The position numbers and the translations under genes were made by a program. A stretch of 40,276 bases of DNA from a virus, in the UHGV virus genome UHGV-0069047; one strand, written 5' to 3'. Below the pieces are notes generated by a model. It was not told where the DNA came from and ran no database searches. It worked only from the letters and a program-made list of their open reading frames with translations. Position 1 is the stretch's first letter; each line of letters starts with the position of its first letter. This document shows, piece by piece, positions 6,882 through 31,958 of the stretch.

Positions 6882-6972
6882 ATTTACATCGCACTCCTCT
6901 TGTGCCATAGTAATCAGGCACTGGCAAAATCCAGTGCCGGGATTGGTCTCCCGGATTACTAAGTGGCGCATA

Positions 6973-6995
6973 CCACGCCAGACGTGGTTTTTTTA
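6973..6995 (+). terminator. rho-independent terminator
   Basis: CCACG-ccaga-CGTGG followed by TTTTTTTT. Confidence 0.55.
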
Positions 6996-7152
6996 TGCGT
7001 ATAGCACAGTCATGCCAGAATTATGGTGGGCTGAATGGGGGTCCGAAAGGACGCCGGTACCACTTAGGCCGGTAAGACCAACTCCGTTCAGTTCACCACC
7101 ATCTGATTGGTCTCAGCGGTGGTGATGTAATTCGCTAAGTGGAGACGCCATC

Positions 7153-25631: not shown

Positions 25632-25708
25632 GTGGCATTAGCTCAGTTTGACAGAGCAACCGCCTTCTAAGCGGTTGGTCGCAGGTTCGAATCCTGCATG
25701 CCACGCCA
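25632..25708 (+). tRNA. tRNA-Arg (anticodon UCU), phage-encoded
   Basis: Hand-folded cloverleaf: 7-bp acceptor GTGGCAT/ATGCCAC, D-stem GCTC/GAGC, anticodon stem ACCGC/GCGGT with loop CTTCTAA, T-arm GCAGG-TTCGAAT-CCTGC, encoded CCA. Confidence 0.85.
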
Positions 25709-29014: not shown

Positions 29015-29896
29015 TTATTCACCATCCTGCTCCGGCGGTTCTGGTAGCGGCATCCAGTGTGACGGTTTCCACGACGCACCAGGAATTATCCACCCATCAT
29101 TAGCGTCAGGATGCCCCGGGATGTAAGTCGCCCATTTCATTCGCCAGTCACCTTTCCTGTCAAACTCCACGGCAACAAGAACGGCTGTTTTGGTATCCGG
29201 CATTCGCTCACTACAGCTTATCCAACTATCCGGAGTTGCCGGATAGTTGCCAGACAGTGCGTTCTGCAATCGTTCCAGCTTAACGTATTCCTGAACCCTG
29301 TTTCCGTCGCACGCCTGAAGCCATTGCACAGCCTTTTGCGCATCAGTGTGAAAGGTACAAGTGCGACCGTCATCAAATTGCATTTCGTAGAGGTCAGCAA
29401 CCTGTTTAAACTGCGTTTGTGGCGACTTGTAAGTTTGGTTTACAGGTTCGGCACCATGAAGCATGGCGGCGCGGCAGGAGTTAAGCGCGTTTTGCACGCG
29501 TTTAGCGTTCTGTACTTCGTATTTAGGTGCGGCTGCCAATGCCCATAGCCAACCAATTTCATAGCTATCAGCTTTTGATAGAGCACATTCCATTTCCAGT
29601 GTTATTTTCTTAGGTACGAGTTGCCAATCATCTGGCACTACCGGTGCTGGCAGCTCGCGATACAGCGAGATTACACGACGCGGGTCCGCATATTTATCTG
29701 GCGGACACTGAAATATCTCACCGAAACCATACTTCCTGACATCGCGCAGTTCCTCTTCATCAGTCCATGCCACCGGTTCTGCTTCCAGCGATGCCAGCGC
29801 AATCCGTGCCAGTTCCATTTGTTCACCACGGGTAAGCCCGTTTTCAAGCGGATTTTTAATGAACAATTCAATACGTTCTTTGGTAATAGTGGTCAT
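29015..29896 (-). CDS. DUF551-like Ead/Ea22-region protein
   Basis: C-terminal block (WISCSERMPD...WMPLPEPP) resembles DUF551 as I recall it; start overlaps upstream stop (ATGA). Confidence 0.5.
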   Translation of the reverse strand: MTTITKERIELFIKNPLENGLTRGEQMELARIALASLEAEPVAWTDEEELRDVRKYGFGEIFQCPPDKYADPRRVISLYRELPAPVVPDDWQLVPKKITLEMECALSKADSYEIGWLWALAAAPKYEVQNAKRVQNALNSCRAAMLHGAEPVNQTYKSPQTQFKQVADLYEMQFDDGRTCTFHTDAQKAVQWLQACDGNRVQEYVKLERLQNALSGNYPATPDSWISCSERMPDTKTAVLVAVEFDRKGDWRMKWATYIPGHPDANDGWIIPGASWKPSHWMPLPEPPEQDGE

Positions 29897-30102
29897 GTGT
29901 TAATCCTCAAAACTTTATGCCCGGGCGCAAAAGTACGTGTTTTGTCTTTGCTTATTCGCCAGCCATCCTTGCGCGCCTCTTTTGCACAGCCAGCCCATGA
30001 CGTACCTATATACTCACCGAAGTCTGGCACTGGATATACACCTTCCGTGCACTGACGGCAGTCACAATAGAGATGCATGGTGTAACTTGCGGCAATAGCC
30101 AT
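29893..30102 (-). CDS. small Cys-containing hypothetical protein (69 aa)
   Basis: Start at MAIAAS with SD AAGGAGA; translationally coupled on both sides. Confidence 0.4.
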   Translation of the reverse strand: MAIAASYTMHLYCDCRQCTEGVYPVPDFGEYIGTSWAGCAKEARKDGWRISKDKTRTFAPGHKVLRINT

Positions 30103-30103
30103 A

Positions 30104-30625
30104 TCATTCTCCTTTGATGCGAATGCCTGTTGCAATGCTGTTTATGATGCTGTCAGTGCATGGGGTAGAAAGCTGGGCATCTCCAGCAATTTTCATGACC
30201 TCAACATCCGCATATCGAATACCGAGGTGTATCAGACCGGCTATACCTGACTTAAGTCGAACATTTTCCATAAACAGATCTTTTTCCCGCTGTTTAGCGG
30301 CTTCCAACTCCATCGACAATTTTTCCAACTGCTCTTTATGCTTCTTGTATTCCTGATACGCGTGCCAAGACTGACCTTTGCGCACACTATCAGTGATATC
30401 AGCAACCTGCTCCGGTGTTAGCGTGGTCAGTGGCTGTGCTGGAAAAATCATCACTTTCCCGGCATCCCAATCAAAACCCGCCTGAATTGACTGAACCTCA
30501 ACTGATGGTGTTGAACCGATGCGACCAGGCGAATGAACAACGATCGTTACATCCATATCGCGACGATGGCTGTGGTTGTTGGACAAAATACGATTCACCA
30601 ACTCAGAAAATTTGGAAAATTTCAT
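30104..30625 (-). CDS. Ead/Ea22-like protein
   Basis: Start at MKFSKF overlapping upstream stop; coiled-coil segment; C-terminal GIRIKGE tail shared with the 30947..31435 product. Confidence 0.45.
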
Positions 30626-30945
30626 GCTGATCCCTCTTTCTCTCCCCGGATAATTCTGTTGCACACATCCACACACTCGTCGCAGATGAAAACGGCGTCC
30701 CCAGCAATTAACTTTTTGACGGCGTACTGGGATTTGTTGCAGAAGCTGCAACAAAGTGTTCGCCTGACTGATAAGGATGGAGCGCCAGATGTCAGCCGCT
30801 CCATATCGTTCTTGCGACGCAATATCACACGGCTGAACTCAACCAGTTTCTCCGGGGATATCTCCTCCTCCGTAGCAAGCGCCTCTAATCGTTCGAGTAT
30901 GTGGAAGGCTTTTTTCTGGGTAATTGCAGAATGCGATGTGGTCAT
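30622..30945 (-). CDS. ClpX-type zinc-finger domain protein
   Basis: C-terminal [34 protein letters not shown] closely matches the ClpX N-terminal zinc-binding domain pattern; start MTTSHS with SD. Confidence 0.55.
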
Positions 30946-30946
30946 C

Positions 30947-31435
30947 TCACTCTCCTTTGATGCGAATGCCAGCGGCGCGGGAATCATTCCATCGCTTTAC
31001 TTCTTCACGAATTACGTCAATGCATTCTTTCGAATCCATTAGGTAATCTTCATCAAAAAGACGTTCCTGTTCGTTTTCTATCGCAACAATGATTGCTTCA
31101 ACTAACTTTTGTGCCTGAGAATCACTTTCTAACTCTGCTATGCGCTTACTTCCATCCGAGATAACGCCCTCGTAATACTCACGCTGCTCGTTGAGTTTTG
31201 ATTTTGCCAACTCCAGTTGTTTTGTTAGTTCCGCAATACGGCAAACATCGTTGATACGCGTTTCCTCTAATGCGTTGATCTCATCCAACAATGCCAGCGC
31301 GATATCTGGCGAAAAGTGCTTCATAAAATCGTTAAGCGCATTAATTCGCTGATCGAAAGGCATTACAGGTGCTTCACCAGCAATTTTTGTTTTTTCAGCG
31401 ATTTCACGAAGCTTTTGATAATCAATCTTGCTCAC
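30947..31435 (-). CDS. Ead/Ea22-like coiled-coil protein
   Basis: 162 aa helical protein ending in GIRIKGE. Confidence 0.45.
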
Positions 31436-31958
31436 TGACTGCCTCCTTCTTAATCAGTTTACACAGGTGCTCCACAGCCACAGAGAGTGCATCCACCGCT
31501 CGTTTATCCAGGCTCGGGGCCAGAGCAACCAGTTCATTTATTGCAATCTGAATACCCTGCGCTCGCGATTTTTCCAGAATGGCGTCAATAGCTGGCGTGT
31601 CGGGCATGAGTGGCGATTCATCCGCAGGCGAATATTCATCAGAAATGTCGGCCTGCTCTCCATGAAATACATAGCAACTGCCCTTGATAAACCGCTTCAA
31701 TGCGACATTCTCCGCCGCAAGCGCCGAAAACTTCTCGTGTGCCAACTTAACAGCCGCATCAGCCTGCTTAATTGACTCAATCGCTTTCTGCTGGTCTTCG
31801 GCCAGCGCATTAGCACGCACCAGTTGCACTTCCAGTTGCGTTGCCAAATCGCTGATCAGCTTTGCCACACTGCGCATATCAACGGCACCACATTCTGCTT
31901 TCAGTTCCGAAGCCATCTCATGCCCGGCGGAAACTAACCCTTTGATATTACTTTCCAT
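31422..31958 (-). CDS. hypothetical protein (178 aa)
   Basis: ORF in nin/Ead-like region; helical. Confidence 0.45.
   Translation of the reverse strand: MESNIKGLVSAGHEMASELKAECGAVDMRSVAKLISDLATQLEVQLVRANALAEDQQKAIESIKQADAAVKLAHEKFSALAAENVALKRFIKGSCYVFHGEQADISDEYSPADESPLMPDTPAIDAILEKSRAQGIQIAINELVALAPSLDKRAVDALSVAVEHLCKLIKKEAVSEQD

Follow-up and report, generated by a model that had tools for sequence, protein, structure and literature searches.

Two long-standing models have been put forward for the mosaicism of phage genomes, one based on homologous exchange at boundary sequences and the other on random illegitimate joining filtered by selection. Short conserved boundary sequences acting as recombination foci in lambdoid phages are credited to Susskind and Botstein (1978) and Clark et al. 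(2001) in the passage of PMC3233612 that mentions them. We have studied a sequence of this type in the UHGV virus genome UHGV-0069047, the whole stretch of 40,276 nucleotides being termed the window. Two genes in the window encode different proteins that both end in the peptide GIRIKGE, specified by the same 20-mer, GGCATTCGCATCAAAGGAGA, and this overlaps the putative Shine-Dalgarno (SD) sequence of the following gene. The 20-mer and its conserved flanks, which we term the block, belong to the mosaic Ead/Ea22-like gene family of temperate phages and phage-plasmids in Escherichia coli and Shigella. Our interpretation, to which we give a probability of about 0.75, is that the block is a conserved gene-boundary (or linker) sequence, the normal 3′ end of a gene of the lambda ea22 type, that would act as a crossover point for the exchange of modules.

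Like the lambdoid boundary sequences, the block is short and conserved, lies at a gene boundary between alternative non-homologous flanks, and is a proposed focus of recombination. Unlike such sequences in general, it sits inside coding sequence, occupying the last 7-10 codons of the upstream gene, and carries an SD, a stop and a start codon. It is also found with dozens of flank combinations, and on non-lambdoid backbones too (a phiV10-like podophage and plasmids of ~90-110 kb). The HK620 study of Clark and colleagues is said to have reported seven boundary sequences. Sequences of this kind are already known, and the block is a good further instance.

The tail has been encountered before at the level of protein. 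Dydecka et al. (2020) observed that all the Ea22 proteins they compared end in K/R-G-E (termed '+GE'), the significance of which was unknown (PMC7093339). Goddard et al. (2024) described Ea22 as a three-part mosaic (PMC10834534); in both studies the C-terminal domains are variable, while the N-terminus and coiled coil that carry them are conserved. These are the same proteins, with the same C-terminal end, as those that carry the tail of the block. In those papers +GE is a protein motif; here it is the in-frame reading of AAAGGAGAG, the predicted ribosome binding site (RBS) of the next gene, and it also occurs on non-Ea22 N-terminal modules. The string GIRIKGE was not found in the literature searched.

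Two exact copies of the 20-mer are present on the minus (coding) strand of the window, at 30108-30127 and 30951-30970. The first-pass annotation had located the first correctly, and the second 3 nt away at 30948-30967. Each copy encodes the last seven residues of one open reading frame (ORF), 30947-31435 (162 aa) and 30104-30625 (173 aa), so that both proteins do end in GIRIKGE as had been stated. No match was obtained in 100 dinucleotide-preserving shuffles, even with up to 3 mismatches allowed. In a repeat search the match lengthens to 28 nt with 26/28 identity (30100-30127 versus 30943-30970), the copies being spaced by 843 bp. The consensus block extends over ~28-37 nt, comprising CGCGYCGCT, the 20-mer as its core, and GTGAKATG. 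Thus the proposal of a shared junction stands, while the size of the conserved unit was underestimated at 20 nt. Copy 2 differs from copy 1 in the part from −9 to −1, where it reads ATTGCAACA.

Both copies have the same geometry, AAAGGAGA-N-TGA-N-ATG, in which the ATG of the next gene lies 1 nt past the stop codon and AAGGAG is 6-7 nt 5′ of that ATG. The predicted duplexes with the 3′ end of 16S rRNA, −12.1 and −8.7 kcal/mol for the two copies, are among the strongest in the operon. The residues K-G-E are simply AAA-GGA-GAG in frame, i.e., they contain AAAGGAG. Spacing and predicted pairing both fit the earlier suggestion that the 20-mer provides the SD of the next gene, which is probably used for its coupled translation. 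Many bacterial and phage operons couple translation in this manner, the upstream ORF containing the SD near its 3′ end, and the stop and start overlapping or nearly so (ATGA or TGAnATG). Both copies have the form of a coupled pair, AAGGAG-AnTGAn-ATG, with the SD inside the upstream ORF and the stop within a few nt of the start. However, the block differs from ordinary coupled pairs in being one copy-identical unit that recurs across unrelated gene pairs, instead of having evolved pair by pair.

This difference bears upon the idea that the tails arose by convergence, each gene end having acquired a strong SD and a stop/start for coupling without shared origin or any role in recombination. Other tails in the region encode in-frame SDs, for example ...LRKGGNQ-stop, which is AAAGGAGG followed by a GTGA overlap, and the AAGAAGGAGG of a 178-aa gene; SD-driven C-termini are therefore common in these regions. 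Yet an SD needs only ~6 nt, and the identity seen here runs to 20-33 nt, including GGCATTCGCATC and often CGCGCCGCT, neither of which has a ribosome-binding role. The choice of stop codon and the 1-nt spacer are identical too, and the shuffled sequences gave nothing comparable. Convergence is consequently a very improbable explanation.

If the tail were the end of a longer domain common to the proteins that carry it, conservation should continue upstream of the block. We therefore analyzed the flanks of the block in other genomes. A scan of viral contigs for the exact 20-mer gave at least 120 stretches; among the matches listed, to which the counts of junctions and copies given below refer, there were 123 copies and 116 complete junctions. 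Upstream flanks (60 nt ending 10 nt before the 20-mer) and downstream flanks (60 nt starting 12 nt after it) were each grouped at 75% identity. This gave 15 upstream and 22 downstream classes, in 49 combinations over the 116 complete junctions, and BLASTP clustering placed the downstream proteins in 15 families. A fair count of unrelated upstream ends is about a dozen, because some upstream classes are variants of each other. One upstream class was found with up to 8 downstream classes, and one downstream gene with up to 7 upstream classes. The C-terminal module of the 162-aa protein of the window precedes 7 different downstream classes elsewhere.

An information profile calculated from one representative of each combination is high from about −9 (CGCGYCGCT) to +28 (GTGAKATG), and at background elsewhere; the flanks cease to resemble one another within ~10 nt on each side. 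Thus a conserved span containing both stop and start codons lies at the gene boundary, with non-homologous alternatives on either side, and the mosaic joints coincide with it. Since conservation is confined to −9 to +28, the proteins that carry the tail do not all share a longer domain ending in it, which is what the first-pass annotation had named as refuting a junction. The alignment of Ead/Ea22-region genes proposed in the first-pass annotation gives the result it predicted, the 49 combinations meeting at the 20-mer.

The two sides of the block behave differently. At positions −9 to −1, 73-100% of the entropy is explained by the upstream class, compared with 21-45% by the downstream class. 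At positions +21 to +31 this is reversed, with 75-100% explained by the downstream class and 17-45% by the upstream class. The association therefore switches within ~22 invariant bases.

The two copies in the window offer a more specific comparison. We constructed a synthetic join from the 150 nt ending in copy 1 and the 150 nt following copy 2. This matches E. coli H3 (NZ_CP028732.1) as a single piece over 300/300 nt, at 96.7% identity. In H3 an ead/Ea22-like gene is followed directly by the 69-aa gene and the DUF551 gene, with one block between, and the surrounding prophage carries Erf and anti-RecBCD genes. The 69-aa gene follows a different gene directly through the same block in H3 and in other genomes. 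The H3 arrangement is what would be expected if the 843-bp two-gene segment had been inserted or deleted by recombination between the copies. Other genomes have inserts of about 200-500 bp in the slot held by this segment; the one in plasmid pEc-050-T0_3 consists of a 64-aa gene ending ...HLRTKGE-stop, with a diverged block copy whose AAAGGAGAGTGATATG core is identical. The segment comprising the Ea22-like, zinc-finger and 173-aa genes is found at 98-99.6% identity in many E. coli genomes and in plasmids of ~106-110 kb, where the homology stops at window positions 30098-30122, in or just past copy 2. In other phages the match to the window extends no further than 30943, at the ATG that follows copy 1. 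The notion of a portable junction for module exchange thus draws support from the flank combinations, the linkage switch and the H3 arrangement, which together suggest that such exchange has occurred.

Two identical copies separated by 843 bp might simply reflect a local event, a recent duplication or gene conversion within this phage. But the block is widespread in other contexts, lambda included, and one contig (L091) has the same two-copy layout with a different downstream gene. So wide a distribution excludes a purely local duplication, the likelihood of which we regard as negligible.

How might a boundary of this kind work? Read in frame, the block forms the final 7-10 codons, [RAA]GIRIKGE, of the gene upstream. 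As mRNA it would supply the strong SD AAGGAG, the stop codon, and the next ATG one base beyond the stop. A homologous crossover within the block would create a new pairing of upstream module and downstream gene, and each such event would rebuild an intact ORF end, RBS and start, so that the tight, coupling-type stop/start arrangement would be kept. In the window, the two copies bracket a two-gene insert comprising the zinc-finger gene and the chimeric 173-aa gene.

We suggest that such crossovers would occur by homologous recombination, of the RecT, Red-beta or Erf type, or by RecA. De Paepe et al. (2014) have shown that Rad52-like phage recombinases drive mosaic formation (PMC3945230), and they quote minimal efficient pairing segments of 23-27 bp (Red-beta) and 31-34 bp (RecA). 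The block is at that limit, with 22 nt that are invariant and an identity of up to ~33 nt in many pairwise comparisons. Since it is identical in contexts that are otherwise unrelated, and as long as the minimal pairing segment of phage annealing recombinases or slightly longer, crossovers could occur within it. Relaxed recombination of the kind these authors described, for which short identity suffices, is the likely mechanism, and the window encodes a RecT-family protein. That work used diverged homology of several hundred bp to 3.4 kb, however, whereas the block offers just ~22-37 bp, at the lower limit. The window's own RecT and PDDEXK nuclease pair (36020-37779) would be a plausible catalyst of short-homology exchange.

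Integron cassettes (attC) and the swapping of CdiA/Rhs toxin C-termini are other systems in which exchangeable units are set off by a recurring short sequence. The block shares with them arrays with a recurring delimiter, and variable C-terminal domains behind a conserved demarcation. It lacks a dedicated integrase, an inverted repeat of the attC type and the pairing with immunity genes, and exchange presumably occurs by general homologous recombination or by that of single-strand annealing proteins. A cassette-like layout is indeed seen in 21 of 219 sources, where 2-3 same-strand copies or variants of the block lie 0.5-1.6 kb apart, and might suggest a site for a dedicated site-specific recombinase or integron-like system, or alternatively a structured RNA or regulatory element. 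Yet the block contains no inverted repeat; 111-nt windows around the two copies fold no better than shuffled sequences (z = −1.15 and +0.24), and a scan of the whole window at Rfam gathering thresholds placed no family at the junction. The block lies in very different phage and plasmid backbones, the annotated neighbourhoods of which showed no recombinase in common. An attC site of the integron type, considered as a candidate, was rejected for want of an inverted repeat or hairpin and of any associated recombinase. We consider explanations of this kind extremely unlikely.

We then asked whether it is the peptide or the nucleic acid that is conserved. A functional C-terminal peptide (a degron, or an oligomerization or partner-binding tag) might be kept by selection on the protein and moved between proteins for that purpose. 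GIRIKGE ends many proteins, often after a conserved R-A-A, and the uniform +GE of Ea22 proteins noted above would agree with this. For an unbiased view of the tail, ORFs of the ea22 type were sampled using a 20-mer from their conserved center (n = 117). The exact 20-mer of the tail is present in 75 of the 117. Variants of the tail include GIGIKGE, GICIKGE, VICIKGE, DIRIKGE, NIRIKGE, NIGIKGE and GIRIKGGE. One allele has a 1-nt insertion by which the frame is lost and the nucleotide block kept, and another has a premature TAG. Of the unique changes in the tail, ~13 alter the amino acid (mostly R>G, R>C and G>D/V/N) and ~5 are synonymous, a proportion which, though the numbers are small, is close to the ~24% synonymous that we estimate would be expected in the absence of selection on the peptide. 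Changes are confined to positions 1-11 or 19-21, except at one site with 4 mismatches that is probably a chance match. Otherwise the SD part CAAAGGAG (positions 12-19) is unchanged across the variants, again with small numbers.

At ~30 loci (e.g., L001 2863-2950, L005 and L006) there are 'scar' ORFs of 16-27 aa, in which the first ~9 codons of ea22 are fused almost directly to the tail; some of these continue (EHGNKTRG). They appear to be boundaries that have survived deletion of the gene body. Nor is the tail always terminal. In the viral contigs 83 of the 123 copies end in GIRIKGE-stop, and the downstream start is at the same offset in 115. The remaining 40 copies have no stop after the tail, and the ORF continues, mostly as ...GIRIKGEEHGNKTRG/R; in these run-on copies the next gene (MEIKPEDE...) begins at an overlapping ATG. 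The fragment of the lambda Ea22 C-terminus studied by nuclear magnetic resonance (NMR) comprises residues 102-182, of which 102-111 are unassigned, with '64 structured amino acids' (PMC10834534). Residues 112-175 number exactly 64, and from these figures GIRIKGE (176-182) appears to lie outside the fold.

A functional peptide would be expected to show amino acid conservation, synonymous variation and a strictly terminal position; the tails do not conform to this, which with small numbers is suggestive. Several observations count against selection on the peptide. The nucleotides are identical across unrelated genes, synonymous sites included. The variants change amino acids freely, and the near-constant part is the SD, of which K-G-E is merely the translation. 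The DNA block is retained in the frameshifted allele and in scar ORFs of 27 aa, and the tail is non-terminal in a third of copies and apparently outside the lambda fold. We therefore think a functional tag improbable. Taken together, the tail variants with their retained SD, the scar ORFs, the non-terminal copies and the NMR numbers point to constraint on the RBS or the shared DNA, rather than on the peptide, a conclusion that is suggestive. The stretch GGCATTCGC of the block is one that could be recoded synonymously with both peptide and SD kept.

We turn to the distribution of the block as a gene boundary. The tail of lambda Ea22 itself is encoded by the same 20-mer (L048 and L080). A match of at least 28 nt to the 37-nt form, CGCGCCGCTGGCATTCGCATCAAAGGAGAGTGATATG, is present in 1617 of 5426 complete E. 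coli genomes (~30%), in up to five places per genome; 194 places are on plasmids. Carriers include lambda, the P22-like H3 prophage, the phiV10-like phage of the window and plasmids of ~90-110 kb, and thus several independent phage lineages. In a collection with one genome per species, credible matches come from Escherichia, Shigella, Shimwellia and Phytobacter. Outside Enterobacteriaceae most matches to the 20-mer are on contigs of ~0.3-1.6 kb, often of low coverage, with a few on contigs of ~48 kb, roughly the size of the lambda genome. The short contigs (within L219-L263) are from assemblies of Streptococcus equinus, Streptomyces, Prevotella, Bacillus, Bradyrhizobium, Psychrobacter and others; those of ~48 kb are from Pseudomonas and Shewanella. 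As lambda ea22 carries the 20-mer, the matches on both these kinds of contig are most likely contamination by lambda DNA, and not a true range.

A number of points weigh against the block as a crossover point, and should be set beside the evidence above. All the evidence for homologous recombination as the mechanism is comparative. The invariance of the 20-mer in the contigs arises by construction, as they were selected on its exact sequence, although this is not true of the linkage switch. Many contigs are redundant prophages, and the counts are not of independent events. Some flank pairs are tightly linked (U0-D0 in 20/20 and U3-D2 in 7/7), and shuffling is therefore not free. Within homologous C-terminal classes the block shows 0.053 differences per site, compared with 0.036-0.069 in the neighbouring coding sequence. 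It is thus not clearly more conserved than its neighbours, and gives no independent sign of special selection on its non-SD part. There are ~10 other clusters of breakpoints at gene or domain boundaries in the region, so that the block is one exchange point among several. Finally, in lambda the block is followed by ATC instead of ATG, with no coupled downstream ORF. This looks like the relic of a lost downstream gene, and the block can evidently persist in that form.

The sequence that follows the block in lambda is GTGAGATCGG; in a related arrangement a 7-codon mini-ORF, ATGAGCAGGAATACGGGTTTGTAA, stands ahead of the same lambda sequence.

The chimeric nature of the 173-aa protein is a further aspect of the locus. 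No Pfam family was found for it at E ≤ 0.01, and so PF13935 is not assigned. Its C-terminal ~68 aa are found in other phages on canonical Ea22 N-termini (VSEINSQALREAA...LALLDERERNQQYIKRRDQENEDIALTVGKLRVELEAEKQRAKDLFMEN...), and the starts of BLAST homology cluster at 30310, which is codon 106 of the gene. The protein is thus best regarded as a chimera with a C-terminal module of the Ea22 type, and not as a family member by profile. Its closest relatives (94-98% identity; P0002-P0015) end ...SIAAGIFTKEGAAR-stop and not GIRIKGE, and the nucleotide homology to such relatives ends directly after GGCATT, at window position 30122. In a two-sequence BLASTP comparison between the 162-aa and 173-aa proteins the tail alone matches (12/28 identities with gaps, E = 0.004). 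These two proteins had been called otherwise unrelated in their C-terminal regions. That is correct of the pair as compared, but each region is one of the alternative C-terminal modules found in the Ead/Ea22 family, and the window holds two Ea22-derived genes whose C-terminal modules are mutually unrelated alternatives. A search of PDB sequences gave no significant relative for either protein.

The N-terminal module of ~105 aa (30311-30625, minus strand) is a widespread alternative N-terminal module, with 2412 database matches. Among the matches listed (P0001-P0120) it is joined through short coiled-coil segments of the ELDAAKQRIAELE type to many C-terminal modules, including DUF551, TPATDAFLAEVRAQG...LRKGGNQ and several that end in GIRIKGE. 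The SIAAGIFTKEGAAR-type tail also encodes an SD-like sequence, accAAAGAGGGGgca, and in P0001 this type of tail is fused in frame to the downstream gene.

Other boundaries nearby have a comparable form. The 5′ boundary of ea22-type genes is stereotyped too, the upstream genes ending ...LRKGGNQ-stop, encoded by cttcgcAAAGGAGGcaaccaGTGAgc, with a GTGA overlap with the ea22 GTG. This tail (AAAGGAGGcaaccaGTGA), overlapping the ea22 start, behaves like that of the block. At 31422-31445 the window has a variant of the 5′ boundary, AAGAAGGAGGcagtcaGTG, in which the overlap is 14 nt. A similar N-terminus, M-[TSA]-[TA]-[ILF]-T-[KD]-[KE]-[EQR], is shared by many downstream genes that otherwise differ (window 29896; L006, L008, L010, L022, L036 and L070), examples being MTTITKERI, MSAITKERI, MATLTKKEQ, MTTFTKEQL and MTTFTDKEL. 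Those genes may have a further boundary in common at their 5′ side. A 15-nt core, AAGGAGAGTGAKATG, ends other types of gene (e.g., L121, L128, L003, L013 and L048), giving ...HLRTKGE-stop, ...NTGIKGD-stop and ...CRAAMLQGKGE-stop. It also ends ...ILRSNKGE-stop, in a variant of the 69-aa gene, and ...RAAAGKGE-stop on a lambda contig. Boundaries of the 'KGE-stop-ATG' form thus make up a broader family, in which the GIRIKGE block is the most frequent.

The coordinates of the block copies and of the genes discussed are collected in Table 1.

Table 1. Block copies and genes of the window, with their positions and the supporting matches
Feature	Position	Strand	Details
Boundary block, copy 1	30943..30979	minus	CGCGCCGCT + 20-mer (30951-30970) + GTGAGATG; last 10 codons of upstream gene, SD AAGGAG, stop TGA 30949-30947, next ATG 30945-30943
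Boundary block, copy 2	30100..30127	minus	20-mer (30108-30127) + ATGATATG; stop TGA 30106-30104, ATG of 69-aa gene 30102-30100
178-aa gene upstream of Ea22-like gene	31422..31958	minus	Overlaps the Ea22-like GTG by 14 nt
Ead/Ea22-like gene, 162 aa	30947..31435	minus	GTG start; ends GIRIKGE; Pfam PF13935, E = 6e-14, residues 2-103
107-aa gene, ClpX C4-type zinc finger	30622..30945	minus	Pfam PF06689, E = 1.3e-15
Chimeric gene, 173 aa	30104..30625	minus	Ends GIRIKGE; N-terminal ~105-aa module without Pfam match; C-terminal module from ~codon 106 (30310)
69-aa gene (MAIAASYTMHLYCDC...)	29893..30102	minus	Started by block copy 2; no Pfam family
DUF551 gene, 293 aa	29015..29896	minus	Pfam PF04448, E = 8.7e-21; ATGA overlap with 69-aa gene
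PDDEXK-like exonuclease, DUF3799	36020-36841	plus	Pfam PF12684, E = 4e-22
RecT-family annealing protein	36811-37779	plus	Pfam PF03837, E = 2e-44

Six minus-strand genes follow one another without gaps from 31958 down to 29015, and no promoter- or terminator-like sites were found on the minus strand among them. Translational coupling had been proposed across four consecutive genes. The ATGA overlaps cited in its support are present, at 30625-30622 and 29896-29893, but the tight packing spans six genes, since the 178-aa ORF overlaps the GTG of the 162-aa gene. The last codons of the 178-aa gene hold the SD AAGAAGGAGG for that GTG. The zinc-finger gene is the first gene of the 843-bp insert between the two block copies. 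Upstream of the cluster lie lambda-P-like and DnaT/helix-turn-helix replication genes and a DUF1064 gene, and in its structural half the window shares ~96-97% identity with phiV10, phiv142-3 and related E. coli podophages. Beyond the recombination pair, at 38479-39582 (plus strand), the window encodes a 367-aa protein resembling DndB (DNA-sulfur-modification-associated). Matches at the Rfam gathering score elsewhere in the window comprise the Hfq-binding RNA isrK at 6918-6994, followed directly by a C4 antisense RNA at 7019-7103, and a tRNA gene at 25632-25705, all on the plus strand.

What is new here is the identification of the block as the 3′ end of genes of the lambda ea22 type, the range of phage types that carry it, the placing of the linkage switch at the block, a natural genome in the 'recombined' state, and an explanation of +GE. 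Within the debate on mosaicism, the block is an unusually well-populated natural case for the model of homologous exchange at boundaries. As it is present in ~30% of complete E. coli genomes and in lambda, the model can be tested directly by standard crosses using lambda/Red or RecT. There are consequences for annotation also. Short conserved C-terminal peptides in tight phage operons may reflect constraint on DNA or the RBS, and not protein function, and the 173-aa 'hypothetical protein' is best read as a chimera of Ea22 modules.

A stronger proposal is that the block is maintained as a 'recombination handle', and is thus more than a relic of shared ancestry, forming an in-frame, recombinase-independent cassette junction for Ea22 C-terminal domains and small early accessory genes. 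We put this forward tentatively, and think it rather unlikely. Were it true, lambda-like, P22-like and epsilon15/phiV10-like phages and phage-plasmids would be trading modules through the block with every product still translatable. The block would then be a functional analogue of integron cassettes, in which phage annealing recombinases would use ~22-37 bp of identical sequence.

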